Source of the DNA: Cytophagales bacterium
GTDB lineage: Bacteria > Bacteroidota > Bacteroidia > Cytophagales > Spirosomataceae
NCBI GenBank assembly: GCA_013298125.1
Contig: JAAFJP010000033.1
Location: 152 to 64,151 of the forward strand
DNA: 64,000 nucleotides
Reading direction: 5' to 3'
In this document: piece after piece, positions 94 to 58,808 of the stretch
How positions within the stretch are numbered: the stretch's first letter is position 1
How the letters are laid out: each line of letters begins with the position of its first letter
Notes under the pieces: model-generated
Databases searched by the model: none
What the model was told of the DNA's origin: nothing
The model's input: the letters and a program-made list of their open reading frames with translations, nothing else
Translations under genes and position numbers: made by a program

Positions 94-204
94 TAATTTT
101 CAATGCTCAATTTTCAATGTTCAATATTCAAGTTTCTTAAAAAACTGAAAGGGGAGCATTATTTACTTGAACATTGGACATTGAACATTGCTCATTGAAA
201 ATTA
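94..204. repeat. Long imperfect intergenic hairpin, 'caatgttcaa' word family (copy A1)
   Basis: Left arm taattttcaatgctcaattttcaatgttcaatattcaagt (94-133) is mirrored by acttgaacattggacattgaacattgctcattgaaaatta (165-204). The loop is about 30 nt. Confidence 0.85.
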
Positions 205-310
205 TAAAACTCACAATTTCCATTTATCCATGAGAGACAGCCGTTTATCCCAAACATTTTTTAATCAAAAATTATCATTCGTAACATTGAACTATCAAAT
301 TACAAACGCT

Positions 311-1777
311 ATGAATCGTTTTCCCTTATTTCTCTTATTAATTACCTGTTTGACTTTCCAATCGAAAGCCCAAAACGCTATTCAAGCTAATGGTAACGAA
401 ACCAAATTGAGCTTGCAAGAGGCTGTGAACATTGCTCAGAAAAATAATATTTCTGTAAAACAAAGCGAAAATCAAGTTTTGCTGAATAGTTTGCAATTGC
501 AACAATCCAAGTTTAATAAACTGCCCAATGCGAGTGGGAATGTCAATGAATTTTTTAATTTCGGACGTAGCCTTGACCCATTCACGAATACAAATATTGA
601 CCAGAACATCAACTATAATCAGTTAAATGTATCAGGAAATGTTATTATTTTTAATGGCTATCAATTAAAAAATACTATCGCTCAAAATGATATTCTCCTA
701 AAAGCTACGCAATTAGACTTACAGGCAATGAAAGAAAATATTGGTTTACAGGTAGCTCTGGCATATTTGAATATTATGAACGCAGAAGACCAATTGAGTA
801 TTTCTCAAACGCAAACCAATATTACTAAATTACAGATTGAGAGAACAGATAAATTAGTAAAGGCAGGGTCATTACCACAATCTAATCTTTTTGATTTGAA
901 GGCACAATTAGCTCAGGAAGAAACGACGGTAATCAACAATCAGAGTATCTTGGATTTAGCAAAATTGACACTTATCCAATTGTTGAACGATAAGAGTATT
1001 ATTGATGTAGCAGTCGATAGAATCTCTATCCCCACGCCTTCTACTACGGGTTATGAAGCCTCAATAGCGAAGGTCTATGAAGTGGCAGAAGCCAGCCAAC
1101 CCGTCATAAAAGCAGCTGATATGCGAATAAAAGGGGCTGACAAAGGTATAGAAATAGCCAGAGCAGGATTTTTGCCTGTTATTTCGGGAAGCGTCAGTGT
1201 GGGAGCGAATCAGTCGAATGCTCAAAAAGATATTGTTCTACAAGATGTTACAGCTACACGAGATTTGGGTACAGTCAATTTTCAAGGACAAAATATTCCT
1301 TTGGTTGTAACATCAACTTCTAAGGGAGTACCTATTAGAACTGATAATACAACCAACTACTTTACTCAACTTGGCAATACATTCAATTACGGTTTTGGTG
1401 TGAATGCAAATATCCCGATTTTTAGTAGATTTGCCAATAAAACAAACGTTTCAAGAGCCAAAATTCAAAAGGAAAATGCTAATTTGAACGCTCAACAAGC
1501 ACGTTTGACATTAAGACAAAATATCGAACAGGCTTATACGAACTTGACTAATGCCGCTAAAAGATTTGATGCTTTAACCATTCAAGTTGCTGCCTTAGAA
1601 GAATCATTCAGAGCTGCCGAAAGCCGTTTCAATGCAGGAGCAATAGATTTTGTGAGTTATAGTTTACAAAAAACAAATCTCGACAAAGCAAAAGGCAATC
1701 TCGTAGCCGCAAAATATGACTTTATTTTCAGAACTAAAATTTTAGACTTTTATCAAAATAAACCGCTTACCTTTTAA
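311..1777 (+). CDS. TolC-family outer-membrane efflux protein
   Basis: ORF 188-1777. A signal peptide MNRFPLFLLLITCLTFQSKAQ starts at ATG 311, and the 188-310 extension lies in the hairpin repeat. Composition is a two-fold repeated coiled/beta OEP-like pattern. An HlyD-type adaptor gene follows directly. Confidence 0.8.
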   Translation: MNRFPLFLLLITCLTFQSKAQNAIQANGNETKLSLQEAVNIAQKNNISVKQSENQVLLNSLQLQQSKFNKLPNASGNVNEFFNFGRSLDPFTNTNIDQNINYNQLNVSGNVIIFNGYQLKNTIAQNDILLKATQLDLQAMKENIGLQVALAYLNIMNAEDQLSISQTQTNITKLQIERTDKLVKAGSLPQSNLFDLKAQLAQEETTVINNQSILDLAKLTLIQLLNDKSIIDVAVDRISIPTPSTTGYEASIAKVYEVAEASQPVIKAADMRIKGADKGIEIARAGFLPVISGSVSVGANQSNAQKDIVLQDVTATRDLGTVNFQGQNIPLVVTSTSKGVPIRTDNTTNYFTQLGNTFNYGFGVNANIPIFSRFANKTNVSRAKIQKENANLNAQQARLTLRQNIEQAYTNLTNAAKRFDALTIQVAALEESFRAAESRFNAGAIDFVSYSLQKTNLDKAKGNLVAAKYDFIFRTKILDFYQNKPLTF

Positions 1778-1780
1778 ATA

Positions 1781-1870
1781 GTAGGCAGTTATCAGTTTTG
1801 CAGTAGGCAGTTTAAGAATATACTTATTGTCTTGCTCAAACTGCCTACTGCAAACTACTTACTGCAAACT
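1781..1870. repeat. Intergenic hairpin, 'gcagtaggcagt' word family (copy B1)
   Basis: cagttttgcagtaggcagttt (1793-1813) pairs with aaactgcctactgcaaactacttactgcaaact (1838-1870). It starts 3 nt after the TolC stop and ends 8 nt before the next ATG. Confidence 0.85.
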
Positions 1871-1878
1871 AAAAAAAA

Positions 1879-3258
1879 ATGGCAAAGAAATCTTCAAATA
1901 AAATCTGGTGGATACTCGGTGGAGTAGTAGTTCTTTTGGGCGGTGGCTTGGGCATTGCCAAGCAACAAGGCATGATTGGCAAAGAACCATCAACCGAGGT
2001 CGAATTTACGAAAGTTAAAAAGGTCGATATTATCGAACGAGTGTCAGCCTCTGGAAAAATTCAACCCGAGGTTGAAGTAAAACTTTCGCCAGACGTATCG
2101 GGTGAGATTGTAGGTTTGTATGTAACAGAAGGGGATTCTGTGCGTGCAGGACAACTTTTATTAAAGATTAAACCTGATAATTATGAATCACTTTTGGCTC
2201 GTGCAGAAGCACAAGTGAACTCAGCGAAGGCATCCGTTGAGCAGGCAAAATCTGGACAATCTCAGTCAGAATCTCGTTTGCTGAAAGCCAAAATTGACTA
2301 TGACCGTAATAAAAAATTGCACGATGATAAAGTGATTTCAGATGCTGATTTTGACCAGTTCAATTCACAATATTTAGTAGCGAAACAAGATGTAGAATCA
2401 GCCAAAGCTAACGTTTTGGCGGCAGAATTTAATGTAAAAAGTTCGGAAGCAGCCTTGAAAGAAGCACGAACAAATTTAACGAAAACTACCATTTACGCAC
2501 CTCAGAGTGGTACAATTTCAAAATTGAATGTGGAGTTAGGCGAGCGTGTTGTAGGAACATCTCAAATGGCTGGTACTGAGTTACTTAGAATTGCCAATTT
2601 GAATAAAATGGAGGTTCGAGTAAACGTAAATGAGAACGATATTACTCGTGTTTCGATGAATGATACCGTAATTATTGATGTGGACTCATACAGTTCTACG
2701 GGACGTAAATTCAAAGGCTTAGTCTATGAAATTGCGAGTTCCGCCAATGGTTCAAGTGGGTCTTCGGCAGCAGCAGCTATTTCAACGGATGCGGTTACGG
2801 AATTTGAGGTAAAAATTAGAATTTTGCGTTCGTCTTATTCAGATTTAATTGTAGGCAAACGTTCTTATCCGTTAAAGCCTGGTATGACGGCATCAGTAGA
2901 AATTGTTACCAATCGTAAATTAGGTGTTTTGTCTGTTCCGCTTGCATCAGTAACAACCCGTGACCCATCTATGAAAGATATGGGTGAGCCAAAAGAAGGG
3001 GAAGAGGATAATAAACAAGAACCTGAAAAAGTGATTAAGAAAGATAAAATCAAAGAGGTAGTTTTTGTGAAAGATAAAAACAACAAGGCAAAATTAGTTG
3101 AGGTAAAAACGGGTATTTCAGACTTTGAAAACATCGAAATCTTGTCAGGTTTGAAAGATGGAGAAGAAATTATCTCAGGACCATATATTACGGTTTCTAA
3201 GAAATTGAAAGAGGGTGAATTGGTAGAAAAGAAAAAAGTTGAAGAGAAAAAGAAGTAG
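1879..3258 (+). CDS. Efflux transporter periplasmic adaptor (HlyD/MacA-type membrane fusion protein)
   Basis: N-terminal TM anchor (IWWILGGVVVLLGGGLGIA), then biotinyl-lipoyl-like, long coiled-coil hairpin and beta-barrel order. It sits downstream of the TolC-like gene. Confidence 0.8.
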   Translation: MAKKSSNKIWWILGGVVVLLGGGLGIAKQQGMIGKEPSTEVEFTKVKKVDIIERVSASGKIQPEVEVKLSPDVSGEIVGLYVTEGDSVRAGQLLLKIKPDNYESLLARAEAQVNSAKASVEQAKSGQSQSESRLLKAKIDYDRNKKLHDDKVISDADFDQFNSQYLVAKQDVESAKANVLAAEFNVKSSEAALKEARTNLTKTTIYAPQSGTISKLNVELGERVVGTSQMAGTELLRIANLNKMEVRVNVNENDITRVSMNDTVIIDVDSYSSTGRKFKGLVYEIASSANGSSGSSAAAAISTDAVTEFEVKIRILRSSYSDLIVGKRSYPLKPGMTASVEIVTNRKLGVLSVPLASVTTRDPSMKDMGEPKEGEEDNKQEPEKVIKKDKIKEVVFVKDKNNKAKLVEVKTGISDFENIEILSGLKDGEEIISGPYITVSKKLKEGELVEKKKVEEKKK

Positions 3259-3908: not shown

Positions 3909-4091
3909 GAATATTAATGATTAAAAGCTAATTCGATGATAATAACGTAATTTCAAACAAAAATAATTCATTTTCCAATGATTAACCAATATTTCTATCA
4001 TTATCCCTCATTTTGAGATTGGGTAATGAAACGAAAACAAACTGAAAATAGTTAGTCTTGTATCAATTTATATGGATGGTAGCAATTAGTT

Positions 4092-4172
4092 AGTTTGCAG
4101 TATGCAGTCTTACCAAAACCAGATGAAGTTTTAATAATCATCCAAATTATCTATTACTGCCTACTGCAAACT
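4092..4172. repeat. Intergenic hairpin, 'gcagtaggcagt' word family (copy B2)
   Basis: agtttgcagtatgcagt (4092-4108) matches the reverse complement of actgcctactgcaaact (4156-4172) at 16 of 17 positions. It uses the same word as the 1781-1870 element. Confidence 0.8.
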
Positions 4173-4204
4173 GATCTTTACTGAATAATTAGACTAAACG
4201 ATTT

Positions 4205-6219: not shown

Positions 6220-7962
6220 TTATTCAAGTCTGATACTCGCCACACTCATCCCCGCAGGAACCATTGGGAATACATTTTCCTCTTTTTCACAAACGATTTC
6301 TAATAAATACGGAGTCGTTGCGGCTAACATTTTATCTAATTCTGCCGATAATTCTGCACGGTCAGAAACCTTGTGGGCATCAATGCCAAAACCTTTTGTA
6401 ATGGCAATAAAATCAGGGTTTTGGAGTTCTACGAATGAATAACGATTATCGAAAAACAACTGTTGCCATTGACGAACCATTCCTAAGAAATTATTATTCA
6501 AAATGATGATTTTTACGGGCAAACCACTTTGGGCAATTGTCCCCAATTCTTGAATCGTCATCTGAAAACCACCGTCTCCGATTAAGGCTATTACCTCACG
6601 GTCTGGAGCTCCAACTTTCGCTCCAAAAGCGGCAGGAAGGGCAAATCCCATCGTGCCAGCACCACCCGAAGTGACTAAGGAATTGGGTTTCATGTACTCA
6701 TAATAACGATTGACAATCATCTGATGTTGTCCCACATCTGTAACCGTAACTGCCTCACCCTTAGTCTTTTTCGACAATAAAGCCACCGCTTCGCCCATCT
6801 TAATTTGGTCGCCATCGTGGAATAAATCACGCTTTGAAACCTTCTCAAATTCTATTTCATCGTACCTTTTAAATTCAGCGAGCCATTCAATATGTTTACG
6901 TTCTTTGACCAATGGCAGAAGTGCTTTCAACGCCTCTTTGGCATCTCCCACGACGGGAGCATTTGCCTTCACGTTTTTATTGATTTCGGCAGGGTCGATA
7001 TCGATGTGTACGATTTTGGCTTGGGTGATAAATTTCGATAAATCGCCTGTTACTCTATCATCAAAACGCATTCCGATGGCGATGATTAAGTCGGCTTCGT
7101 CCGTCAAAACATTTGCTCCATAATTGCCGTGCATTCCCAACCAACCGATATAATTTGGGTGATTGTGTGGCAAAGCCGACATTCCCAAGAGTGTTGTAGC
7201 TACTGGAATACCCGTTTTACGAGCAAATTCATCCAATTCTTCTTGGGCTTTGGCAATCAAAATCCCGTGTCCCGCAAAGATGTAGGGCTTTTGGGCAGCA
7301 TTAATCAATTTTGCCGCTTCCTCCACTTGCGATTGCTTCGGAATATACCTCGGACGATAGCTAACTATCTCACTACAAGGCTTATAGAAAAACGGCTTGG
7401 TCATAATATCCGCCTGTGCCGTGCGAGTAATATCCAACAAAACAGGACCTGGGCGACCCGATTCTGCGATATAAAATGCCTTTGCCATGATTTCTGGAAT
7501 CTCGTCAGCATCCGTGATTTGGTAGTTCCACTTGGTCACGGGCATCGACATTCCGATAATATCACACTCCTGAAAAGCATCCGTTCCCAAAAGATTCGCC
7601 TTTACCTGTCCGACCAAACAAACCATGGGCGTTGAGTCTAAAAGTGCATCGGCGATGGGAGTCATCAAATTAGTTGCCCCTGGTCCAGAAGTTACCATCG
7701 CAACCCCCGCCCGACCCGTCATGCGAGCGTAGCCTTGTGCAGCGTGTCCTGCACCTTGCTCGTGACGCACGAGAATGTGTTTGATACGGTCTTGATAGTC
7801 GTAGAGGGCATCGTAGGTAGGCATAATTGCCCCGCCAGGATACCCGAAAATAGTTTTTACATTATTTTCTACTAAACATTGCATGATTGCCTGAGCCCCC
7901 GATAAAAATTTGGGCGTTTCAGTCATGGGCATTTCTGCGGTCATGGTTTGTGTGTTTGCCAT
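6220..7962 (-). CDS. ilvB: Acetolactate synthase large (catalytic) subunit
   Basis: Full-length ThDP enzyme with the ThDP-binding motif GDGGFQMTIQELGT...NN. Typical AHAS N-terminus (GAQAIMQCLVENNVKTIFGYPGGAIMP). Confidence 0.95.
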   Translation of the reverse strand: MANTQTMTAEMPMTETPKFLSGAQAIMQCLVENNVKTIFGYPGGAIMPTYDALYDYQDRIKHILVRHEQGAGHAAQGYARMTGRAGVAMVTSGPGATNLMTPIADALLDSTPMVCLVGQVKANLLGTDAFQECDIIGMSMPVTKWNYQITDADEIPEIMAKAFYIAESGRPGPVLLDITRTAQADIMTKPFFYKPCSEIVSYRPRYIPKQSQVEEAAKLINAAQKPYIFAGHGILIAKAQEELDEFARKTGIPVATTLLGMSALPHNHPNYIGWLGMHGNYGANVLTDEADLIIAIGMRFDDRVTGDLSKFITQAKIVHIDIDPAEINKNVKANAPVVGDAKEALKALLPLVKERKHIEWLAEFKRYDEIEFEKVSKRDLFHDGDQIKMGEAVALLSKKTKGEAVTVTDVGQHQMIVNRYYEYMKPNSLVTSGGAGTMGFALPAAFGAKVGAPDREVIALIGDGGFQMTIQELGTIAQSGLPVKIIILNNNFLGMVRQWQQLFFDNRYSFVELQNPDFIAITKGFGIDAHKVSDRAELSAELDKMLAATTPYLLEIVCEKEENVFPMVPAGMSVASIRLE

Positions 7963-7973: not shown

Positions 7974-8616
7974 TTATTCTTGTGATTTTGTTATTTCTTT
8001 CTTAAAACCAATTTCTTTACGATTATTTTCTGGATTCAGTAACTCGTTCAAAACTTGGTGAATGTCATCAATTTGTCCATCATATTTTGATTCTATTTGT
8101 TCAATTTTTTCTTTCAAATCTTTATACCCAAAAGCATATTGACGAATGGCTACAAATGTTCTCATAATAGCAATATTTACCTGCACCGCTTTCATCAATT
8201 TGTCCATCATATTTTGATTCTATTTGTTCAATTTTTTCTTTCAAATCTTTATACCCAAAAGCATATTGACGAATGGCTACAAATGTTCTCATAATAGCAA
8301 TATTTACCTGCACCGCTTTCTCACTTCTGAGTACACTTGAAAGCATGGCAACGCCTTGTTCAGTGAAGACATAAGGTAGTTTTCTTACACCTCCATAATT
8401 GGACAAACTTGATGTCACAAATTGTGACTTCAAGTTTATGTACTCATTATCAGTTAGTTGAAACATAAAGTCTTCTGGAAATCTTGTACTATTCCGTTTT
8501 ACCCCTTGATTCAAAACCTTGGTTTCTACTTCATAAAGTTCTGCTAAATCACTGTCTAACATTACTTTTTGTCCTCTAATTTCATAGATTTTATTCTGAA
8601 TAATCTGTAACTCCAT
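7974..8616 (-). pseudogene. ORF6N-domain (KilA-N-related) protein gene disrupted by a 127-bp tandem duplication
   Basis: ORF 8122-8616 starts with a typical ORF6N N-terminus ([46 protein letters not shown]). ORF 7974-8210 repeats the peptide [41 protein letters not shown] and carries the C-terminus. The two are out of frame because of the duplication. Confidence 0.8.
8065..8318. repeat. Perfect 127-bp direct tandem duplication (2 copies)
   Basis: Copy 1 at 8065-8191 and copy 2 at 8192-8318 read identical by eye. 127 is not a multiple of 3. Confidence 0.9.
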
Positions 8617-8746
8617 TTGTGGTTAATTTTTAGTGGATTAAATTGTATTTCTTTGAGGTCACAAATTGTGACCTCATTTGTAAAGCATTTCAGGCTATAT
8701 TTTTGTACAGTTTTGAAATATTTGATATGATTATTTCAAGAATTCT

Positions 8747-9409
8747 CTATCTTGGTGATTCAACCTCTGGTCTTGGATTATTGATGATGAATTGTAAGCC
8801 AAAATTGATAGGTAAATATGCTTTAGCATTAAATCCATTTTGTGAATTATTTATTCCTGCAAACCAAGTTTGTAAACCAAATCTTTGCTTAACATAATAC
8901 GTTATACCCACATTAAGCGAAAAATTTGAGAAAGATAATCCATTAAAAACCTCTGTTTCAGTATAATCACTACTATTTGATACCGATGTTTCAACATGAA
9001 TATTTGAATGATCTAACCAAAGAAATCCTAAATAATTAACTCCGACAAATGGCGTAAATCGAGTTTTTAAGAAATTATATTGTATTTCAGGTTTAATAAT
9101 GAAAGCCCAACTCTTTTGTGTGGAATAGTAGTCATTATTAGTATTTATTAAAAATCTTTCTAATTTAGTATAGCGAAAAGTCGTGTTTAATCCTATTGCG
9201 AATTTATCGCTCAAATAATAATGAGTTGATATTGGCAATTGAAAATTCATCAATTTATAATTCTCACTTAAACCTACAAAATTATTACCTGAATTATTGG
9301 CAAAACTATCCCACCCAACCGTAGGCGTAATAACCCAATCGCCCTTTTCAGTCTGTGAAAACCCTGATAATGAAATACTTAGTAAAATAATGGTGAGTGG
9401 CTTTTTCAT
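8747..9409 (-). CDS. Outer-membrane beta-barrel (porin-family/OMP_b-brl-like) protein
   Basis: Signal peptide MKKPLTIILLSISLSGFSQ, alternating amphipathic beta-strand pattern and aromatic-rich strand ends. Confidence 0.6.
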   Translation of the reverse strand: MKKPLTIILLSISLSGFSQTEKGDWVITPTVGWDSFANNSGNNFVGLSENYKLMNFQLPISTHYYLSDKFAIGLNTTFRYTKLERFLINTNNDYYSTQKSWAFIIKPEIQYNFLKTRFTPFVGVNYLGFLWLDHSNIHVETSVSNSSDYTETEVFNGLSFSNFSLNVGITYYVKQRFGLQTWFAGINNSQNGFNAKAYLPINFGLQFIINNPRPEVESPR

Positions 9410-9446
9410 TTTGTTGGTAGATTATTGGTTGAAAATGTACATTGAA

Positions 9447-10763
9447 TTATTTGACAAGTGACTGATTATACAAACTGAGTTGGTATTTCTTTAAAACTTC
9501 AACTCTACTATCCAATCTCTCTGGGATAGGATATACTACATTTCTGATTGAAGAGTGTTGATAATCTCCCCGTAAAATATGTTCTTTACCTACCATGATT
9601 TCTTTATTTCTGTCTTCGGCAAGTTGCAGATACCGAATCTGTGAACTTAGCAAATATCCCAATAATAAAACCGTGAGTCCTGCAACTGTATTTTGGATAT
9701 ACTTAGGCTTTTTCCATTTTTCTAAATGGGTTATCAAAATTATCACTGATACAAAAAATATCAAGGTAAATGGCAAACTCAAAACACAGTACCGTCTGGA
9801 TAAACTTTGTCCTGTTCCTTCTACTGCTCTCCCGTAAGCGGTCATTAAACTTGTCAAAATGCCAAACAGTCCAAATGCCATAAAAGGCAATGATTGATAG
9901 AATTTCTCTCGCTCCGATTTATATTGTAAGTAAAACGCTGTGATAATAGTCAATAGCTGTATTACTGAAAATACGATTGCTTTTGAGGGTGTTACGGTTA
10001 AATTATTCGAGAGGAAGGCTAACGAATATGGAATAATTTTCGTTAAATCCATCGTTCTTTCTGTAATTGGGCTGGTAGAGTAATAATTCGTAAAATAGAA
10101 ATACACTTGAACCAACAAGCAGCACAGTACAAAGAGAATATATTGTACCTTCTGAGGTCGGGTTACATTACTAAAAAAGATGAGTAACATCACACACACC
10201 CAAGATAAAAGCCCTGTTACGTAAGAAAGCGTTGCTACATGGACTAAAAAACAACTGATAACTACATTCCTCCAAGTAATTTTCTTCAAAACTATCAGCC
10301 CTCCAAATGTTGCTATGACTGATAAATAATAATTAATTGAAAATCCCATAATGATACTCTCGTAGTTTTTGAAAGAATATATCATCACAAAACACCCCAA
10401 GAACAACACATTCACTACAATCGTACTTTTCGATTCAATAATCTGTTTTAACTCTCTTTTAAAAATAAGATAGAATATAAAAAACATGACCATATTGAAC
10501 GCAACGAGATAAAAGGATTGCCATTTTGTTATCAGTATGACAAAAAGATTTATCAGGTGTGGATATAACATTCTACAATCATTGTGAGGAAAATTCAATA
10601 ACGATAGATTGAGTTCTCCTTTTTGGTACAAATCAACTAAATAAGTCATTTCCCATTCATCAAGCAAAGGAACATTGTGCCGATTGATGTATAAATAAAT
10701 CATCAATGAACTAAACGCTACGATTTCAATGAGTGTGAATAATTTTGAATTTATTGATTGCAT
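9447..10763 (-). CDS. Polytopic inner-membrane protein of unknown function (possibly GT-C-like glycosyltransferase)
   Basis: At least 10 hydrophobic segments. The start is most plausibly ATG 10763 (MQSINSKLF...), because the longer ORF would overlap the ilvD 3' end. Function was not recognised. Confidence 0.55.
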   Translation of the reverse strand: MQSINSKLFTLIEIVAFSSLMIYLYINRHNVPLLDEWEMTYLVDLYQKGELNLSLLNFPHNDCRMLYPHLINLFVILITKWQSFYLVAFNMVMFFIFYLIFKRELKQIIESKSTIVVNVLFLGCFVMIYSFKNYESIIMGFSINYYLSVIATFGGLIVLKKITWRNVVISCFLVHVATLSYVTGLLSWVCVMLLIFFSNVTRPQKVQYILFVLCCLLVQVYFYFTNYYSTSPITERTMDLTKIIPYSLAFLSNNLTVTPSKAIVFSVIQLLTIITAFYLQYKSEREKFYQSLPFMAFGLFGILTSLMTAYGRAVEGTGQSLSRRYCVLSLPFTLIFFVSVIILITHLEKWKKPKYIQNTVAGLTVLLLGYLLSSQIRYLQLAEDRNKEIMVGKEHILRGDYQHSSIRNVVYPIPERLDSRVEVLKKYQLSLYNQSLVK

Positions 10764-10828
10764 AAAGTTTTTATCGTTTGTGTCAAAGGATTTTTGAGTT
10801 TGTAGTAAATCTACGTTGAGGTTTTTTT

Positions 10829-12505
10829 CTACAAATCCGTAACACAACCCAAACTCGCACTACTCACATTCTTGATATATTTTCTCAAAACCCCTTGCTT
10901 GAAAGGCGATTCGATGGGTTTCCAAAGTTTACGTCTTTCCGCTAATTCTTCATCTGAAACGTGAACTTGCAAAACGTTATTTACCGCATCAATCGTAATC
11001 AAATCACCGTCTTTTACCAAGCCGATATTTCCCCCTGACTGTGCTTCGGGCGAAACGTGTCCGACCACAAACCCGTGCGTACCACCTGAAAAACGTCCGT
11101 CTGTAATCATGGCTACTTTATTGCCCAAACCAGCCCCCATAATTGCCGAAGTGGGCTTCAACATTTCGGGCATTCCTGGTCCACCTTTTGGTCCTTCGTT
11201 ACGAATCACAACGACCATACCTTCTTTAATTTCTCCTTTTTCCAAATATTCCATAACTTCCTCTTCACGCTCACAAACTTTGGCAACGCCCTCAAAACGC
11301 TCTCCTTCTTTACCCGTAATCTTTGCCACAGCACCTTCTGTCGCCAAGTTTCCGTAAAGAATTTGCAAGTGTCCCGTGGCTTTCAGAGGCTTTTCGATAG
11401 GGAAAACAATCTTTTGAGCCTCAAAATCTAAACTCGGTACATCCGCTAAATTCTCAGCAATGGTCTTGCCCGTAATGGTCATACAATTTCCATGCAATAA
11501 CCCTTTTTCAAGCAAATACTTCATCACCGCTTGCACACCTCCGATGGCAAGCATATCTTCCATATAATATTTTCCAGAAGGTTTCAAATCAGCAATTAAG
11601 GGCGTACGGTCAGAAATCGCCTGAATGTCTTTCAAGGTAAATTCAACCCCTGCGGCTTGGGCAATTGCTAAATAGTGCAACACGGCATTGGTAGAACCAC
11701 CCAAAGTAATCACAACTGTAAGAGCATTCTCGAATGCCTCACGAGTCATAATATCACGGGGGCAAATATTCTTTTCCAACATATTTTTCATGGCTGCCCC
11801 AATCGCCAAACACTCCGCTTTTTTGCCTTCGTGCGTAGCTGGATAAGTTGAGGAATTAGGCAAAGTCAAACCCATTGCCTCCATTGAACTTGCCATCGTA
11901 TTAGCGGTGTACATCCCTCCACAAGCCCCTGCCCCTGGAATGGCATTCTGAATCACACCTTCATAATCTTCGTCAGAAATCGTCCCTGCGTATTTTTGAC
12001 CCAATGCCTCAAAAGCCGAAATAATATCTAATTTTTTACCTTTATATTCTCCTGTACGAATCGTTCCACCATAAACCAACATCGCAGGACGGTTCAAACG
12101 AGCAATTGCCATCATTGCCCCTGGCATATTTTTATCACAACCCACTACTGCAATCACGCCATCGTACCATTGTCCACCGACTACGTTTTCGATAGAATCA
12201 GCAATAATATCACGGCTTGGCAAGGAGTAACTCATGCCGTCATTACCATTCGTCATGCCGTCCGATACGCCGATGGTATGAAAAATCAAGCCTACCATGC
12301 CATTTTCTTGAATACCTTTTTTTACGTGTACGGATAGTCCGTTCAGGTGCATATTACAAGTATTGCCTTCATAACCCGTACTGGCGATACCAATTTGGGC
12401 TTTTTGCATATCTTCGGTAGTAAGACCGATACCGTATAACATCGCCTTTGCGGCAGGATTGGTTACTTCTTGGGTGAGTGTGCGGGAGAATTTGTTAAGT
12501 TCCAT
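10829..12505 (-). CDS. ilvD: Dihydroxy-acid dehydratase
   Basis: Full-length IlvD/Edd family with motifs [15 protein letters not shown] and HVSPEA. Confidence 0.95.
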
Positions 12506-17031: not shown

Positions 17032-17040
17032 GTTTTTGGT

Positions 17041-17105
17041 GATTGGTAATCGGTGATTAATGATTGGTACTCTGAGCTTAGTACCAATCACTAATCACCA
17101 ATTAC
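17041..17105. repeat. Intergenic hairpin, 'gattggt' word
   Basis: gattggtaatcggtgattaatgattggtac (17041-17070) pairs with gtaccaatcactaatcaccaattac (17081-17105). Confidence 0.85.
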
Positions 17106-17166
17106 TATTAACTAAAAGGATAACGTTTTGATTAACAAAAAGTTACAGTATTCAAAAATTTATTTT

Positions 17167-17967
17167 CTAATAAAAACTATCTCGTTTGCTTCCCCACATT
17201 CTAATCAGAATAAAAGCAAAAATCATTCCTCCGATATGAGCAAAATGAGCGACGTTATCGCCTGGCATTCGGCGGATTCCTGCGTAGATTTCGTATAAAG
17301 CATAGAAAGTTACAAAATATTTTGCTTTAACTGGAAAAGGAAATGGGAAAAGCATAAATTCTGTATTTGGAAACAGCAGAGCGAAGGCAGCCATGATACC
17401 AAATCCTGCTCCTGAAGCTCCTACCATTGGCGTATCGATTACATTTTTGAGGAGACTCTCTATCGCATTTTTATATTCTACAACTTGGTCATTGGATATT
17501 ACCAAGTTATTTTCAATTTTTAGAGGATTACCTTCGATACCTAAATTTGAATAAAATTTATTAACAAATGAAACGTAGTTACCTCCCTCTGGATTCAATA
17601 GAAAATTGTTCGCCAAAGTTTCAAGTGGATGAATGTCGTAATATTGAAGAGCCATATAAAATAATCCAGCTCCTACGCCTGTCACAAAATAAAAAATCAA
17701 AAATCTTTTTTCACCCCAAAGCATTTCCAAAGTTGGTCCTAAAAAATATAACCCCAACATATTGAAAAAAATATGTCTTGTATCAGCATGAACAAACATA
17801 TAGGTAACAAACTGAATGGGATTGAATAAACTCGATGAAAAATAGTGTAATCCAAACAAAGAATCAATCATACCATCATATTGTGGATTGATTCGTTGTA
17901 CGATAAATACAATTATATTTATGACAATGATTGCCCTCACAATGGGCGTAAGTTGTGGTGTTCTCAT
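17167..17967 (-). CDS. Rhomboid-family intramembrane serine protease (second paralog)
   Basis: GASGAGFGI catalytic motif, HIGGMIFAF His motif and multiple TM segments. Confidence 0.85.
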   Translation of the reverse strand: MRTPQLTPIVRAIIVINIIVFIVQRINPQYDGMIDSLFGLHYFSSSLFNPIQFVTYMFVHADTRHIFFNMLGLYFLGPTLEMLWGEKRFLIFYFVTGVGAGLFYMALQYYDIHPLETLANNFLLNPEGGNYVSFVNKFYSNLGIEGNPLKIENNLVISNDQVVEYKNAIESLLKNVIDTPMVGASGAGFGIMAAFALLFPNTEFMLFPFPFPVKAKYFVTFYALYEIYAGIRRMPGDNVAHFAHIGGMIFAFILIRMWGSKRDSFY

Positions 17968-17974
17968 TTTTTCA

Positions 17975-18160
17975 GGGATTGGGGATTGGGTAATTTAGGG
18001 ATTAGGTAATTAGGGATTGGGTAATTAGGGATTGGGTAAAAGTCTTACAATTTCAGACTCTTAAAATTGTCTATCTAATCTATTGAAGATATGATTTTCT
18101 TATCAATCCTCTAATCCCTATTTACCCAATCCCTAATCACCCAATTACCTAATCCCTAAA
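17975..18160. repeat. Long intergenic hairpin, 'gggattagggatt' word family (copy C1)
   Basis: The left arm is gggattggggattgggtaatttagggattaggtaattagggattgggtaattagggattgggtaaa (17975-18040). The right arm is atcaatcctctaatccctatttacccaatccctaatcacccaattacctaatccctaaa (18105-18160). It spans almost exactly from the cysS stop to the rhomboid start. Confidence 0.9.
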
Positions 18161-18164
18161 ACAA

Positions 18165-19730: not shown

Positions 19731-20102
19731 TTATTCATTTGTTTGATATTTTTCTTTTACAAAATTGATAAATTCTTCTACCATTTGTAGGGCTTTATCA
19801 ACTTCTTCTTTACCTATTTCTTCTTCGGGTTCATAATCGGCGTTTTATCTTTCTCTAAATAAGTACCCTAAATATTCACCATAATCCAAGGGTATTTCCT
19901 GTGTTTTGATAAATACTCGACCAAACTCACTGTTTAGTCCTTTATGAGTTTTTGCAACAATTCCCTTTGTAGTTAAAATTCCTTTTGCTAAATAATAATA
20001 TGCGTAATAACATCGGTTCATAGCTCCCCTATATCGTTCATTCTTAGCATCGTCAAAAGTATCTAAGGCTAAATCAAGGCTATTTTTAATGTCTTCATTC
20101 AT
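19731..20102 (-). pseudogene. HEPN-domain toxin gene with an in-frame TAA inside the conserved R..ADY motif
   Basis: ORF 19845-20102 ends ...GYLFRER-TAA. The same frame continues as NADYEPEEEIGKEEVDKALQMVEEFINFVKEKYQTNE to TAA at 19731 (hand translation). Together this gives a 123-codon HEPN-sized protein. Confidence 0.7.
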
Positions 20103-24277: not shown

Positions 24278-25453
24278 ATGACCATTATTGAAGTCGCTGA
24301 CGATAAAAAACTTCAACAAGAATTTCTTTTATTACCCGTAAAACTGTACGCCGAAGATGCTAATTGGATTCGCCCGCTCGACCAAGATGTGGAGAATACT
24401 TTTAAGCCCGAAAAGAATAAATATTTCAAACACGGGGAGGCAATTCGCTGGATTTTACAGGATTCCAATGGGCAAACTATTGGGCGGGTAGCGGCTTTTA
24501 TTAACCATGAAACCGCCAACAAAGAAGACCAACCCACGGGTGGAATGGGCTTTTTTGAGTGTATTGAAGAAGAATCTGCCGCTTTTTTGTTGTTTGAAAC
24601 TTGTAAAAATTGGTTGGCTTCCAAAGGCATGGAGGCAATGGACGGTCCCATTAATTTTGGCGAAAGAGACTCCTTTTGGGGGTTGATGATAAAAGGCTGG
24701 CAATACGAGCCAACCTACAAAATGCCGTGGACGAAACAGTATTATATCCAATTTTTTGAGAACTACGGTTTTAAAGATTATTTCCAACAATACATCTACG
24801 TTACGCCCATCAAAGCGGCAACAGTTGCAGACACCGTGGAGGACAAAGCTCGTAAGGTTTACGCCAATCCAGCCTACGATTTTCGACATATTGAAAAGGG
24901 TAAATTAGCCAAATACGGAGAAGATTTCAGAACGATTTTCAATGAGGCTTGGGCGAAATTTCCAGGTGTAAAAGAAATGAAAGAAGAACAAGCTCAAAGT
25001 TTGGTAAACACCATGAAACCTATCATTGACGAGCAACTCACGTGGTTTGCTTACGCAGGGGAGCGTCCGATTGCATTTTTTATCGTTATTCCAGATATTA
25101 ACCAGATTGTCAAACACTTAGACGGAAAATTTGGACTGTGGCAGAAGCTAAAATTCTGGCTTTTGCTCCAACGTGGAGTCATTACTCGTACTTGCGGAGT
25201 GATTTTTGGAGTCGTGCCAGATTTTCAAGGCAAGGGCATTGAGTCGGCAATTGCATTGCGTTTTCGTCAGGCTGGGCGAGACAATCCGCATTATCAATAC
25301 GAGACAATTGACATGAATTGGGTAGGAGATTTTAACCCAAAAATGAACCGTTTTGTATCACAATTAGGTACAACCCGTGACAAAGAATTTATCACCTATC
25401 GTTATCTTTTTGATAGAACGAAAGAGTTTAAGCGTTGCCCGAGAGTTGGGTAG
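24278..25453 (+). CDS. GNAT-like acetyltransferase-fold protein (two-domain)
   Basis: GNAT motif-A-like FGVVPDFQGKGIESAI. This is a family widely seen in Bacteroidota, and the assignment is by recognition only. Confidence 0.5.
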   Translation: MTIIEVADDKKLQQEFLLLPVKLYAEDANWIRPLDQDVENTFKPEKNKYFKHGEAIRWILQDSNGQTIGRVAAFINHETANKEDQPTGGMGFFECIEEESAAFLLFETCKNWLASKGMEAMDGPINFGERDSFWGLMIKGWQYEPTYKMPWTKQYYIQFFENYGFKDYFQQYIYVTPIKAATVADTVEDKARKVYANPAYDFRHIEKGKLAKYGEDFRTIFNEAWAKFPGVKEMKEEQAQSLVNTMKPIIDEQLTWFAYAGERPIAFFIVIPDINQIVKHLDGKFGLWQKLKFWLLLQRGVITRTCGVIFGVVPDFQGKGIESAIALRFRQAGRDNPHYQYETIDMNWVGDFNPKMNRFVSQLGTTRDKEFITYRYLFDRTKEFKRCPRVG

Positions 25454-25455
25454 TA

Positions 25456-25542
25456 TTAGACCACAGATTAAACGGATTTAACAGATTTACACGAATTTTT
25501 TTAATATTTATCCGTGTAAATCCGTCTAATCTGTGGTCTAAT
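25456..25542. repeat. Hairpin between convergent genes ('cacagatt/aatctgtg' words)
   Basis: ttagaccacagattaaacggatttaacagatttacacg (25456-25493) pairs with cgtgtaaatccgtctaatctgtggtctaa (25513-25542). Confidence 0.9.
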
Positions 25543-25548
25543 AATTCC

Positions 25549-26904
25549 CTACAAAACTTTATATCCTTTCCCCGCATCATCAATCACCAGAACCCAATCA
25601 TTGCTATAGCCAACTGCAGGAGGTGTAAACTGCTTCGTTCCTTTGTTTTCAAAAGTCATCATTTCTTTGCTTTTTCCTGTTTTGGGTTCGTACCAAAAAG
25701 CATTCAAAGTCGTTCCAGAAATCTTGCCCAAATTCACCGTAAAAGGCTTTCCTGCGGCTGAATACACGAAAATATAGTCATTTCCACGAGTAGCTTGGAT
25801 TCTTTCAGCGGGTGAATTATTGTTTTCAAGGATAATGGTTTGGTCAGGAATTCTGTCTAAAATTGGACGAGATTCCATGAGTTTTCTTACATATTTCATC
25901 TGATTGGCGGCGGGTAATTCAAGGGCTTCTTGCCAAAAAACGTGCGGATTATTGACGGCAGAACGGTAGGGTGAATAAAATTGCCAAATATCATGACAAC
26001 CATACGTATGCCCAAAAGCCCCCGCAAAAAGGTCTAAATAAGCATATTTCCGAATATCATAGGCACTGGAAACGCCCAAATCATTAGCATTAAAACAAAC
26101 AGGATGGTCTTCATAGATAGGTTCGGCATCCATGACGGGTTTTGTGGGTGTACGATTATACGAACCTTGAATTTTGTCATAAATCGCTTGGTCACGACAA
26201 TGACCGTTTTGGAACATATTAAAGTCCAACCACTCGTCTTGATGAAACCACTCGCCCGAACCTTTTTCGTTGGGTTGTGGGTGAAAACTTATCAACGCAT
26301 TGGCTTGTCCGCCCACACCTTCCACGATTCCAGCCGCCATTTCTCGCCAGATTTTCTCGTGCGTAGCGTTCTGCGGATTGCGGTCACCACCCAAAATCCA
26401 GATAAGATTTTTACGATTTTTATAACGATTACCCAACCATTTTCCGTAGATTTTCGCATTTTCAGGCGTGAAGATTTCAGGTCCATTTCCCCAAGTGGAT
26501 TTCCAAATTTTATCTCCCCAAGTAGGTAAAAAGGCAATGTTCATTCCAAAATCATTTGCCTTATCTATCACATAATCAACGTGTTGAAAATATTTTTCAT
26601 TAGGTTTTGTGGGATCGTCATTTTCCAAAGGCAAATCTCCATAAGGATTTGGCGTGTGTAAACCATCAAATTCTGCAAGGGCTACGGCTTGTACAATCGT
26701 AAATCCCTGTTCAGTACGACGTTTGAAATATTGTTCGGCTTGTTCACGATTCAGGCGGTGAAATAACTCCCAAGCGGTATCACCCATCCAGAAAAAAGGC
26801 TTGCCGTCTTTTAACAAAAAACGTTTATTATCGCTAACTTTAAATTGAGCGAAAACGGATATATTTAACAGCAAGATAACAAATAAAAGTATGTATTTTT
26901 TCAT
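25549..26904 (-). CDS. DUF4038/GH140-like glycoside hydrolase with C-terminal beta-sandwich
   Basis: Signal peptide starts at ATG 26904 (MKKYILLFVILLLNISVFAQ). The block FLLKDGKPFFWMGDTAWELF is typical of DUF4038 (apiosidase-like) proteins. Confidence 0.65.
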   Translation of the reverse strand: MKKYILLFVILLLNISVFAQFKVSDNKRFLLKDGKPFFWMGDTAWELFHRLNREQAEQYFKRRTEQGFTIVQAVALAEFDGLHTPNPYGDLPLENDDPTKPNEKYFQHVDYVIDKANDFGMNIAFLPTWGDKIWKSTWGNGPEIFTPENAKIYGKWLGNRYKNRKNLIWILGGDRNPQNATHEKIWREMAAGIVEGVGGQANALISFHPQPNEKGSGEWFHQDEWLDFNMFQNGHCRDQAIYDKIQGSYNRTPTKPVMDAEPIYEDHPVCFNANDLGVSSAYDIRKYAYLDLFAGAFGHTYGCHDIWQFYSPYRSAVNNPHVFWQEALELPAANQMKYVRKLMESRPILDRIPDQTIILENNNSPAERIQATRGNDYIFVYSAAGKPFTVNLGKISGTTLNAFWYEPKTGKSKEMMTFENKGTKQFTPPAVGYSNDWVLVIDDAGKGYKVL

Positions 26905-31047: not shown

Positions 31048-31125
31048 AGCCCCCTAACCCCCAGAGGGGGAATAACGAGCAAAAAATTATATGACCTCAA
31101 TTCCCCCTCTGGGGGTTAGGGGGCT
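31048..31125. repeat. GC-rich palindromic element (copy E1) between nuoM and nuoN
   Basis: agccccctaacccccagagggggaat (31048-31073) pairs with attccccctctgggggttagggggct (31100-31125) as perfect 26-nt inverted arms. Confidence 0.95.
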
Positions 31126-35298: not shown

Positions 35299-35313
35299 AT
35301 GTGTTTTATTAAC

Positions 35314-35392
35314 AGCCCCCTAACCCCCGATGGGGGAATTTTAGTCCACAATTATCGGACAAATAAATTCCCCCATCGGGGGTTAGGGGGCT
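35314..35392. repeat. GC-rich palindromic element (copy E2) between nuoK and nuoL
   Basis: agccccctaacccccgatgggggaat (35314-35339) pairs with attcccccatcgggggttagggggct (35367-35392). The termini are the same as E1, and the internal triplet is swapped in both arms. Confidence 0.95.
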
Positions 35393-35396
35393 TTTT

Positions 35397-37422: not shown

Positions 37423-37489
37423 TGTTAATATATCGAAATATTGAGCTTTTATTTTACACTCAAGGAAGGCTTACACTTGTATTCACCGC

Positions 37490-40448: not shown

Positions 40449-40588
40449 AGTGGTGAAAAGGGTTAAAGAAGCTGAAAAGGGTTAAAGAAGGTGAAATGAG
40501 GTGAAAGGTTTTCATTCTCTAAAAAATTACCTCCTTTTACCCTTTTCACCTCCTTCACCCTTTTCACCCTTTTCACCTCCTTTCACCC
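40446..40588. repeat. Intergenic hairpin, 'gtgaaaaggg' word
   Basis: The left arm is gtgaagtggtgaaaagggttaaagaagctgaaaagggttaaagaaggtgaaatgaggtgaaagg. The right arm is acctccttttacccttttcacctccttcacccttttcacccttttcacctcctttcaccc. Confidence 0.9.
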
Positions 40589-44169: not shown

Positions 44170-44299
44170 AAGTTGTTAAGTTTCAAAGTTATTAAGTTGA
44201 TAAATGAGTGGCAGAATTTTGCCCAGTTTAATTACTTAAAACTTAGCAACTTTGTAAGCCCAAAACCTAACAACTTAGAAACTTAGTAACTTAACAACT
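44170..44299. repeat. Intergenic hairpin, 'aagttgttaagtt' word
   Basis: aagttgttaagtttcaaagttattaagtt (44170-44198) pairs with taacaacttagaaacttagtaacttaacaact (44268-44299). Confidence 0.85.
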
Positions 44300-45172: not shown

Positions 45173-45302
45173 AATGAATAGTTAATAGTTGATTATCAAT
45201 GATTTAGCTATTTTATATAAACTTAGTAGAAAAGGAATAGAGCTGATGTTCTGTTCCTTTTTTCTTTTAAAACTATTACTTTTTCACTATTAACTATTCA
45301 TT
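45173..45302. repeat. Intergenic hairpin ('aatgaatagttaatagt' arms) enclosing a terminator-like inner hairpin
   Basis: aatgaatagttaatagtt (45173-45190) pairs with cactattaactattcatt (45285-45302). The inner hairpin is aaaaggaatag-agctgatgtt-ctgttcctttttt. Confidence 0.85.
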
Positions 45303-46888: not shown

Positions 46889-47008
46889 AGAGAAGGGAGA
46901 AAGGAAAAAGGGAGGAATGAAAACAGTAAAAACTAAATGTTTATCCTGTCTCCGTTCCTCCCTTTTTATATTTGTTCTGTCTCCATTCCTCCTTTTTTCC
47001 CTTTCTCC
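46889..47008. repeat. Intergenic hairpin, 'ggagaaagg/cctttctcc' word
   Basis: agagaagggagaaaggaaaaagggaggaatgaaaacag pairs with ctgtctccgttcctcccttttt...ctgtctccattcctccttttttccctttctcc. It generates two spurious ORFs (46829-47026 on - and 46917-47114 on +). Confidence 0.85.
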
Positions 47009-48562: not shown

Positions 48563-48579
48563 GTTTTTGAAAAGTTTTT

Positions 48580-48706
48580 TAATTTATAACTTTCAATGTT
48601 CAATACCCAATGTTCAATGTTCAAGGGTAAAAGTATATACCAGTTTATGTGAAGATAAATCTCACTTGAATATTGTAAATTGAACATTGTACATTGAGAA
48701 TTATTA
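48580..48706. repeat. Intergenic hairpin, 'caatgttcaa' word family (copy A2) between cysH and cysD
   Basis: taatttataactttcaatgttcaatacccaatgttcaatgttcaag pairs with cttgaatattgtaaattgaacattgtacattgagaattatta. Confidence 0.85.
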
Positions 48707-48735
48707 TTTTAAGTTTAAGATTTTAGTAGAAAAAT

Positions 48736-50907: not shown

Positions 50908-50932
50908 AAGGAAGCTATTATATTTGTTACAG

Positions 50933-50969
50933 AATCACTCTTTCATTGGTTTGGGAGAGTGATTTTTTT
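50933..50969 (+). terminator. Intrinsic terminator after cysN
   Basis: aatcactct-ttcattggtttggg-agagtgatt followed by ttttttt. Confidence 0.75.
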
Positions 50970-55108: not shown

Positions 55109-55114
55109 GGGTAT

Positions 55115-55270
55115 TGGGGGGTTTTGGGATTGGGTTAGGAAAAGTTAAAATAATTTTCAATTTCCAATGTTCAATAATCAATGTTCAAGTATTTGACATT
55201 CAACCACTTAAACATTGATTATTGAACATTGAGTATTGAAAATTATCTTCACTTTTCCCCAATCCCTAAA
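55115..55270. repeat. Nested two-word hairpin (outer 'gggattggg' word, inner 'caatgttcaa' word, copy A3)
   Basis: The outer pair is tttgggattgggttaggaaaagt against acttttccccaatccctaaa. The inner pair is ataattttcaatttccaatgttcaataatcaatgtt (from 55150) against aaacattgattattgaacattgagtattgaaaattat (to 55247). Confidence 0.9.
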
Positions 55271-56911: not shown

Positions 56912-56932
56912 GCCGAAAGCCGAAAGCCGAAA
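56912..56932. repeat. Perfect heptamer tandem repeat (gccgaaa x3)
   Basis: gccgaaagccgaaagccgaaa is followed by gcctacggc. It lies in the mutY/HU divergent intergenic region. Confidence 0.9.
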
Positions 56933-57179
56933 GCCTACGGCTGACCAAACTCCCAAATGTCTAATAATTAAGCAATTACAAAAAAAAAGTTACAATATTT
57001 ATTTTTTGTTTCTTTTATAATTAAAACCAAAGCCGTACCTTTGTGTCCCCTAAGAATAAAGGGTATGTGAGAATATAGGTAAAAACCGCTAATAAAACCC
57101 CTAACGTATTCATTCTCAGTTATTAACATACGCAACCATTATTAGTATAACATATTTTTTAACTTAAATTTTTCAACAA

Positions 57180-57465: not shown

Positions 57466-57587
57466 GTAGTTATTGGTTACTGGTTGATTAGTTATTAGTT
57501 TTTTGTTATTTGTGTAATTCTTAAATAAGTTTTCATATTTTACAGATAACCAATAACCAATCAACCAACAACCAATCAACCAATAAA
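57466..57587. repeat. Intergenic hairpin, 'ttggtt/aaccaa' word
   Basis: gtagttattggttactggttgattagttattagtt pairs with agataaccaataaccaatcaaccaacaaccaatcaaccaataa. It begins 1 nt after the HU stop and ends 5 nt before the next ATG. Confidence 0.85.
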
Positions 57588-58447: not shown

Positions 58448-58454
58448 GGTGTGA

Positions 58455-58489
58455 TTTGGGGATTAGGGATTGGGAAATTAGGGATTAGG
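58455..58489. repeat. 'gggattaggg' word array (C-family), direct copy 1
   Basis: tttggggattagggattgggaaattagggattagg. The same orientation is seen at 59061-59096. Confidence 0.85.
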
Positions 58490-58601
58490 TTTTTAAAAAA
58501 TTAAAAATCCTCTCTTTATAATACTGAAAACTAAAATCTAACCGAAGCGACGGTCGCATCGACATAAAATAAATTATTTAACATTTAAAACTTTTAAAAT
58601 C

Positions 58602-58691
58602 ATGCCTTGCGGAAAGAAAAGAAAGAGACACAAGATCTCAACGCACAAAAGAAAGAAGCGTCTTAGAAAGAACAGACATAAGAAGAAATAG
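58602..58691 (+). CDS. 29-aa highly basic micro-protein, ribosomal protein bS22-like
   Basis: Hand translation gives MPCGKKRKRHKISTHKRKKRLRKNRHKKK. It resembles the KKRRKRM.KKKHRKLLR.TR core of bS22, which is known from mycobacterial and Bacteroidetes ribosomes. Confidence 0.65.
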   Translation: MPCGKKRKRHKISTHKRKKRLRKNRHKKK

Positions 58692-58693
58692 AT

Positions 58694-58808
58694 TTAGGTT
58701 TTAAGGGAAAAGTCATAAGTCTTTAAGTCATAAGTCGTAAGAAATACCTCGGTAAAAAATCTTACGACTTGTGACTTACGACATACGACTAATTTTCTAA
58801 AACCTTTA
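58694..58808. repeat. Hairpin, 'gtcataagtc/gacttacgac' word
   Basis: ttaggttttaagggaaaagtcataagtctttaagtcataagtcgtaag pairs with cttacgacttgtgacttacgacatacgactaattttctaaaaccttta. Confidence 0.9.

Follow-up and report, generated by a model that had tools for sequence, protein, structure and literature searches.

A window of 64,000 nucleotides from a Cytophagales bacterium of the family Spirosomataceae (assembly GCA_013298125.1, contig JAAFJP010000033.1, positions 152 to 64,151 of the forward strand) was found to contain 17 long imperfect hairpins of 63-198 nt, whose arms are tandem arrays of a short word and the matching reverse-complement arrays. These hairpins are probably intergenic palindromic repeat elements made of tandem heptamer units, a Bacteroidota counterpart of the short tandemly repeated repetitive (STRR) hairpins of cyanobacteria with a likeness to repetitive extragenic palindromic (REP) sequences, REPINs and miniature inverted-repeat transposable elements (MITEs). 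They are DNA-level palindromes, divided among several families whose members are scattered both inside a genome and across related ones. At orthologous spacers they are gained, lost and replaced although the flanking proteins are identical, and their two arms evolve in concert. Sites that tolerate insertion have accumulated them, namely the DNA just past stop codons, operon spacers and convergent gaps; coding DNA has none, and the promoter-bearing divergent gaps have few. All coordinates below are positions in the window unless another contig is named.

Detection and placement of the hairpins

Hairpins were detected with an inverted-repeat finder, by folding every intergenic gap, and by local alignment of 300-nt windows to their own reverse complement, and all three routes recovered them. 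Together they amount to about 1.9 kb, or about 21% of the 9.4 kb of intergenic DNA, at a density of roughly one per 4 kb in a sequence of about 36% G+C. The inverted-repeat scores of the real hairpins were 45-156, while shuffled 300-nt windows gave a mean of 21.5 and a 99th percentile of 35; the z-scores of folded spacers were as low as -21. Inverted-repeat matches were intergenic in 27 cases out of 32, compared with an intergenic share of 14.7% of the window (P = 3e-18). The word arrays were detected in both arms by Tandem Repeats Finder (TRF), and a search of the window against Rfam at gathering thresholds returned no match.

A preliminary description of this DNA had reported at least 16 intergenic hairpins of 60-190 bp, and our count is in agreement with it. 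Its gene names also agreed with Pfam, which confirmed OEP/TolC, HlyD, CysS, two rhomboids, NuoK/L/M/N, TPR proteins, RibH, CysH and CysD, as well as SSB, a GldE-like CNNM/CBS protein, HU and the RNase E/G gene at 59291. The loops, given there as 15-65 nt, ranged from 3 to about 94 nt when measured. The architecture had been called constant; about 10 word arrays in the window have no paired partner, so that it is better described as frequent. One hairpin lies in a divergent gap.

Of the convergent gaps, 20% contained a long inverted repeat, compared with 5.4% of the co-directional and 2.5% of the divergent ones (convergent vs divergent, P = 5e-5); per kb, such repeats were approximately tenfold commoner in convergent than in divergent gaps. 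By this distribution, the hairpins favour the 3' ends of genes, a pattern also known for REP-type elements. The sole exception to 3'-end placement is the hairpin at 4091-4173, in a divergent gap. Several hairpins are located within the nuo, cysHD and tolC-hlyD operons.

Heptamer words and repeat families

Autocorrelation of all arms gave a self-match fraction of 0.48 at a lag of 7 over a background of about 0.27; lag 8 formed a shoulder of the peak, and harmonics followed at 14-15 and 21-22. In most arms the period assigned by TRF was 7, 14 or 15. The preliminary description had listed words of varied length. Those arrays are real, but the lag-7 peak indicates that the underlying unit is mostly a heptamer (7-8 nt). 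The 5' arms in the window are rich in G (181 G vs 75 C; 12 of the 17 hairpins). Since the elements are palindromic, the same is true of either strand, so that an RNA copied from them is rich in G and U in its 5' arm and in C and A in its 3' arm. Pooled hairpins of other genera did not show this bias. A transcription-related bias in which the G-rich arm faces the upstream gene was ruled out, as a palindrome has the same 5' arm on either strand.

The word had also been said to differ from locus to locus, which did not hold, since several families recur within the window and at non-orthologous sites in relatives. Three hairpins belong to the AATGTTC family. Copy 1 (94..204) lies 5' of the OEP/TolC gene, copy 2 (48578..48712) occupies the cysH-cysD spacer, and copy 3 (55138-55258) lies in the ssb-gldE spacer. 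The three can be aligned over their full length; their palindromic termini TAATTTTCAAT...ATTGAAAATTA are conserved at these three unrelated loci, and their central loops are unrelated. In both nuo hairpins a single REP-like CCCCC unit, GCCCCCTAACCCCC-NNN-GGGGGAAT, forms an inverted doublet. At 31048..31125, in the nuoM-nuoN spacer, the core is AGA (GCCCCCTAACCCCC-AGA-GGGGGAAT) and 26 bp are perfectly paired; at 35311..35395, in the nuoK-nuoL spacer, the core is GAT/ATC, and this second pair is missing in the closest relatives. The CCCCC unit matched at least 120 metagenome contigs of low G+C, mostly as singletons. The arms of its 3-nt core were complementary in 13 of 27 metagenome copies and TTT/TTC dominated the cores; the two rare cores of the window (AGA/TCT and GAT/ATC) do match between arms.

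The GCAGTAG family was found at two sites in the window. A GCAGTAG/GCAGTTT hairpin (1779..1871) fills the tolC-hlyD spacer, beginning 1 nt past the stop and ending 7 nt short of the ATG, and a weaker member (4091..4173) lies in a divergent gap, 32 nt 5' of a K+-channel gene. GGGATTA was found at four sites. A GGGATTA/GGGTAAT hairpin (17967..18164; 72 pairs, z = -13.8) occupies the entire 197-nt cysS-rhomboid spacer, and an unpaired GGGATTA heptamer array (58459..58489) is missing at the same position in the relative L087. The GGTGATT/GGTAATC hairpin between the two rhomboid genes (17034..17117) represents a family that fills the HU spacer in relatives L088 and L090, and the AAGTCAT and CCCCC families were both found elsewhere in L087, at non-orthologous sites. 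Nesting was seen in three cases. AATGTTC copy 3 is enclosed by an outer GGGATTGGGG stem, the whole spanning 55109..55270 (63 pairs, z = -15); the AAGTCAT hairpin at 58696..58805 lies within the remnants of a TTAGG-type stem; and the hairpin at 45173..45302 encloses a canonical terminator.

Turnover at orthologous spacers and co-evolution of the arms

Orthologous spacers were compared at these loci: nuoK, HU, ssb (L088) and the RNase-G leader. NuoL of the window was 94% identical to that of a Bacteroidota metagenome-assembled genome (MAG), L007, and 84% identical to those of Arcicella rosea and Flectobacillus roseus. Exact-protein look-ups gave no match for ssb and cysH and one short contig for ribH. 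This contig (L217, from SRR9948923, positions 1-130) is the sole public contig with an identical RibH, and it ends 130 nt 5' of ribH, inside the hairpin; its ending inside a hairpin suggests that such elements break short-read assemblies.

Metagenome contigs encoding an identical NuoK had entirely different nuoK-nuoL spacers. In a comparison of 80 genomes, many Bacteroidota had a nuoK-nuoL spacer of 1-30 nt, and the three closest relatives had one of 54-78 nt with weak structure. Hymenobacter, other Cytophagales and the window carry large hairpins there independently. L007 has a hairpin in a convergent gap whose equivalent in the window is just 5 nt long. When the 843-nt leader of the RNase E/G gene was compared between the window and L087, conserved blocks were seen to be broken by word arrays. 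After the stop of a conserved 29-aa basic open reading frame (ORF) in this leader, the window has an AAGTCAT heptamer hairpin (58696..58805) where L087 has one of the GGGATTA type, and in both the same conserved canonical terminator (58808-58852) comes next.

The HU-TPR spacer, filled in the window by a TTGGTTA/AACCAAT heptamer hairpin (57472..57586), contained a hairpin in all eight relatives encoding an identical HU. The words drift between them (TTGGTTA, GTTATTA, GGTGATT and GGTAATT, a series xGTxATT), and one relative has the unrelated word TTTGAAA. The difference in spacer length between the window and L093 is exactly 7 nt, or one heptamer. Duplex energies at this locus averaged -29.8 kcal/mol for a hairpin's own arms and -18.0 kcal/mol for cross-pairs between relatives, and cross-pairing with the unrelated variant gave -3 to -10 kcal/mol. 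The idea that the arms co-vary while the words drift, proposed at the outset as a check, was thus borne out at the HU-TPR spacer. Likewise, sequence varied and structure was kept in the ssb-gldE spacer of two genomes and in the 3' untranslated region of the small basic ORF.

Arm co-variation is compatible with selection on the RNA or with arm-to-arm conversion at the DNA level and does not separate the two. A sense structure selected as RNA would be expected to tolerate G-U pairs but not A-C mismatches, so its sense strand should be the more stable. No such bias was observed in the window (sense strand more stable in 8 hairpins, antisense in 7) or over the window and 96 loci combined (17 vs 19, Wilcoxon P = 0.6), nor was there an excess of G-U pairs on the sense strand in the window (32 sense vs 42 antisense). 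The absence of strand bias therefore favours arm-to-arm conversion at the DNA level over RNA selection.

Similar heptamer-word hairpins were found in Dyadobacter, Hymenobacter, Larkinella, Spirosoma and one Cytophagales MAG. Arrays of period 7/14/21 are patchy across Bacteroidota loci, being dense in Adhaeribacter, Larkinella, Ravibacter and the lineage of the window and missing at the Aquirufa and Arcicella rosea loci. Long near-perfect hairpins were also seen beside the nuo operon in Spirosoma, Larkinella and Hymenobacter (L014 3516-3607, L038 6544-6633, L056 3342-3443 and 6307-6387); their arms are not tandem words (e.g. TTTTTGTCATGCTGACGAAGGAAGCATC..., TGTCATTCCGAGCAAAGCGAGGAATC...).

Stop and start codons, terminators and promoters

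In nine co-directional gene pairs listed in the preliminary description the hairpin fills the spacer almost wholly. Measured from the outermost stem, the distance from stop to hairpin base was 1-12 nt and that from base to start 2-29 nt. The base had been placed within 0-20 nt of both codons, with cysH-cysD given as looser, and in eight of the nine pairs neither distance exceeded 20 nt. The median distance was 3 nt to the stop and 12 nt to the start, and the stop was the nearer of the two codons in 7 of 9 pairs, which fits purifying selection on an A-rich initiation leader. At the nuo sites both flanks summed to 13-19 nt, the size of the whole spacer in hairpin-free lineages. A palindrome of 80-190 nt inserted into an originally short operon spacer would by itself leave stop and start this close to it. 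The juxtaposition had been taken as a possible functional feature; insertion into spacers that are 1-30 nt in hairpin-free lineages accounts for it.

The downstream ATGs look genuine, with sensible N-termini and a short unpaired A-rich leader. The tolC gene probably starts at ATG 311 rather than at TTG 188, and the second rhomboid gene probably starts at 17031. The hairpins mislead start-codon calls, as in these two genes, and they could also pass for terminators or for small RNAs.

A U-run was missing downstream of all nine spacer hairpins. The -7 motif of Bacteroidetes, TAnnTTTG, was present in 8 of 8 divergent gaps and in 0 of 9 hairpin-filled spacers; on this motif evidence, nuoL, nuoN and the other downstream genes must be read from the same transcript as their upstream neighbours. 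Canonical terminators consisting of a stem and a U-run do occur in the window, at 28578-28609, 37384-37423, 50931-50966, 58808-58852 and 60878-60921. A consensus terminator scan picked up only sub-hairpins of the CCCCC units, and generic sigma-70 and terminator scans performed no better than on shuffles and missed the word hairpins. The suggestion that these are not simple terminators was upheld by the lack of U-runs and of the -7 motif in the nine spacers and by their position within nuo, cysHD and tolC-hlyD. The hairpins are not ordinary intrinsic terminators.

Proposed origin and alternative explanations

We propose that the heptamer arrays expand and contract by replication slippage, and that the complementarity of the arms may be kept by arm-to-arm template switching (quasi-palindrome correction) or by transposition of the element as a unit. 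Some families would have spread to new sites, perhaps with a preference for existing hairpins, and selection would preserve the A-rich initiation leader when a spacer receives an insertion. Since the operon spacers that they fill have no promoter motif, the hairpins are presumably co-transcribed and would then fold as long stem-loops. Such stem-loops would most likely serve as 3'-exonuclease barriers, RNase III sites or partial attenuators, as REP/BIME and Correia elements do, and the RNA effect may be a side-effect retained at some loci, e.g. downstream of HU, of ssb and of the small basic ORF.

Several points weigh against this proposal. The view of this organism's genome is 64 kb only. No transposase or other mobilising gene was recognised among the 40 of 57 window proteins scanned, no insertion sequence was seen in the window, and no target-site duplication was recognisable at the three AATGTTC loci. 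The persistence of a hairpin at HU-TPR in eight relatives and after the basic ORF in two genomes hints at selection for structure beyond mere tolerance. The G-richness of the 5' arms is unaccounted for, and the RNA-level effects are purely inferred.

One alternative is that the hairpins are a local mutational by-product, arising by slippage in place with template switching keeping the arms complementary, neutral and with neither mobility nor effect. The drift series at the HU locus, the difference of one 7-nt unit between the window and L093, the lack of a transposase among the scanned proteins and the lack of strand bias would all fit, but we regard this explanation as unlikely given alignable copies with conserved termini at three unrelated loci, the same families at non-orthologous sites of relatives, unrelated words at one identical position in the window and L087, and a CCCCC unit spread across at least 120 contigs. 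Quite unlikely, in our estimate, is translational coupling or re-initiation, in which the folded mRNA would put the stop of gene n beside the start of gene n+1. The terminating ribosome would melt the last ~8-12 bp of the stem and free the A/C-rich leader of the next cistron, and downstream translation would depend on upstream translation in an organism not using Shine-Dalgarno pairing. Such coupling is physically plausible, since a terminating ribosome must melt the stem base, and it has already been proposed for the cyanobacterial STRR hairpins (PMC2670836). The short distances to stop and start, the unpaired A-rich leader before each ATG, the position nearer the stop and the spacers without promoter motif would be expected of it. 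However, the same elements lie in convergent gaps, after terminal genes, before a real terminator and in a divergent gap; there is no sense-strand pairing bias; in the closest relatives the nuo genes are expressed with no such hairpin between them; and insertion into a spacer of 10-30 nt would give the tight geometry anyway.

That the hairpins are intrinsic terminators lacking a U-run, possibly bidirectional, or strong attenuators defining where transcripts of this lineage end appears very unlikely. Their roughly tenfold enrichment in convergent over divergent gaps and their location immediately 3' of stop codons are in accordance with such a role, and symmetric hairpins could work in both directions. 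Against this stand the missing U-runs and the canonical terminators used elsewhere in the genome, e.g. 58808-58852, one of which follows a word hairpin in conserved form and another of which is enclosed by one. Moreover, several hairpins are inside the nuo and cys operons with no promoter motif downstream, and full termination there would silence essential downstream genes. It is highly improbable that the arrays are protein-binding sites, with one OB-fold (Csp/S1-like) or nucleoid protein per heptamer acting in RNA chaperoning or DNA organisation. A strict 7-nt period common to unrelated words would suit such binding, as would the binding of one CspB protein per heptamer (discussed in PMC4679880) and the TAACTGA arrays that lie directly 5' of the nuoL and nuoN starts in relatives, but the words are too diverse for a single sequence-specific binder, and most arrays are in duplexes, which OB-fold proteins do not bind. 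BIMEs are known to bind gyrase and IHF. We also consider doubtful, to much the same degree as simple coupling, two bolder readings taken together: either expression coupling without Shine-Dalgarno pairing has been selected throughout the lineage, where ribosomes that terminate at 1-4 nt from the base would unzip the stem and license the start on its other side, or a dedicated, horizontally shared machinery makes heptamer arrays in Cytophagales, filamentous Cyanobacteria and Beggiatoaceae. In the former case tandem-word arms could make the zipper robust to slippage.

Other hairpins and unpaired arrays

The remaining members of the catalogue are as follows. Two long hairpins lie in convergent gaps, one with a period-9 ACAGATTTA word (25445..25552) and one adjoining the canonical terminator 60878-60921 (60945..61033). 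A GGTGAAAAGGG-type hairpin of period 9-10/19 (40452..40587) is in the TPR-DUF4292 spacer, where the TGA stop falls within the first word. Directly 3' of the stop of an M23 peptidase gene is a AAGTTGTT hairpin of period 8 (44171..44299) with a -7 promoter motif downstream. The AATAGTT word hairpin at 45173..45302 is located before ribH, and its loop holds the canonical G+C stem and U-run terminator. A GGAGAAAGG/GGAGGAATG hairpin (46893..47003) was found between the Schlafen-AlbA_2 and MoxR AAA genes. Unpaired arrays of TTAGGGA (59062-59095) and GCCGAAA (56912-56935) were also detected.

Other features of the window

The 29-aa ORF mentioned above, MPCGKKRKRHKISTHKRKKRLRKNRHKKK (58602-58691, + strand), is extremely basic and conserved; it precedes the RNase E/G gene, within the 843-nt gap. 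The alignment block that holds it is near-invariant between the window and L087, and the conserved canonical terminator is on the 3' side of the ORF. It matched no Pfam or NCBIfam family and may resemble the small bS22-type ribosomal proteins.

A gene with a PIN domain and a 74-aa ORF that overlaps it (32591-33183, - strand) are inserted into the complex I operon between nuoL and nuoM and are likely to form a toxin-antitoxin pair; a 50-aa paralogous fragment is present 5' of the pair. The same nuoL-nuoM site holds a 75/77-aa ORF in L002-L006, and in L004 and L005 a PIN gene as well. HEPN-domain and nucleotidyltransferase genes with an 8-nt overlap (19845-20421, - strand), between cysS and a sulfatase gene, suggest a HEPN/MNT toxin-antitoxin module.

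An ORF6N-domain gene (8122-8616) and two ORFs of 220 and 466 aa without Pfam match (together 8122-10847, - strand) sit between ilvD (10829-12505) and ilvB (6220-7962), and this block appears to be an insertion into a branched-chain amino-acid operon. A perfect 127-bp tandem duplication (8065-8320; 2.0 copies, 100% identity) covers the 3' end of the ORF6N-domain gene. As 127 is not a multiple of 3, the duplication should alter the C-terminus of the ORF6N protein. Either it arose recently or it is an artefact of assembly.

Comparison with known repeat elements

Like the REP, BIME and REPIN sequences of Proteobacteria, the hairpins are extragenic palindromes that are not found in coding DNA, favour 3' ends and operon spacers, and are presumably co-transcribed. 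The CCCCC family makes inverted doublets that form a larger hairpin, as REP/REPIN units do, with two doublets in the window, and presence/absence polymorphism between strains is a further trait common to REPs. The known effects of REP/BIME elements are mRNA stabilisation and attenuation. REPs differ in being single conserved units of 20-40 bp and not tandem heptamer arrays of many words, and, unlike the case of REPINs, no RAYT transposase (PF01797-type match) was found among the 40 window proteins scanned. The Correia/NEMIS elements of Neisseria and the ERIC/IRU elements of enterobacteria are transcribed as stem-loops that are processed by RNase III or alter mRNA stability. They resemble the hairpins described here as palindromic elements of ~100-150 bp inserted beside genes and transcribed as long stem-loops, but each of them forms one family that has a TA duplication and inverted termini of defined sequence, and they are not known to have a heptamer substructure.

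No described element class was known to the author of the preliminary description, whereas both STRR 7-bp-repeat hairpins (PMC2670836) and heptamer arrays in Bacteroidetes (PMC4679880) have been published. Intergenic heptamer arrays were reported in Beggiatoaceae, Cyanobacteria and five Bacteroidetes (MacGregor 2015, PMC4679880), and, in the account of Mrazek 2007 relayed there, heptanucleotides are the commonest long simple repeats, possibly a result of polymerase slippage. Those arrays share with ours the intergenic heptamers, the frequent ending a few nt before a start codon and the patchy phylogeny, but they are direct repeats described as unstructured, whereas most of the long arrays in the window have an inverted array as pairing partner. 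Direct TAACTGA arrays ending a few nt before the nuoL or nuoN start were seen in L007 (9900-9945 and 13440-13500) and L001 (3455-3490), which is the arrangement described for Beggiatoaceae (MacGregor 2015). The window itself has no TAACTGA array, with two near-matches of 2 mismatches each against 0.6 expected.

The closest likeness is to the STRR sequences, which are "usually made up of 7 bp repeats" and form hairpins between co-transcribed cyanobacterial genes such as hupS-hupL, for which roles in stability and translational coupling were speculated in a paper on hydrogenase proteases (PMC2670836). As in STRR, tandem 7-bp units let the spacer fold into a hairpin, the elements are sited between co-transcribed genes or at 3' ends, structure is kept while sequence is variable between close relatives, and the same roles (transcript stability, translational coupling, termination) come into question. 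The phylum differs, being represented here by Cytophagales/Spirosomataceae and not by Cyanobacteria, and the likeness is drawn from the published description; in addition, the stems in the window are as long as 60-70 bp, some hairpins are nested, and one family is G/C-rich and REP-like. The words of the window presumably differ also from those of the STRR families (CCCCAGT and others). A literature search found no description of the hairpin form in Cytophagales.

The initial observation is thereby sharper, as these are heptamer-based, family-structured palindromic repeat elements with fast turnover; a new gene-control device is not demonstrated. Heptamer-repeat hairpins have so far been treated as a curiosity of heterocystous cyanobacteria. 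The same architecture occurs at high density in Cytophagales and is patchy elsewhere in Bacteroidota, which makes Cytophagales a second, genetically distant setting, next to that of the cyanobacterial STRR hairpins, for asking what generates 7-nt arrays and what long intercistronic stem-loops do to polycistronic mRNAs without Shine-Dalgarno initiation.

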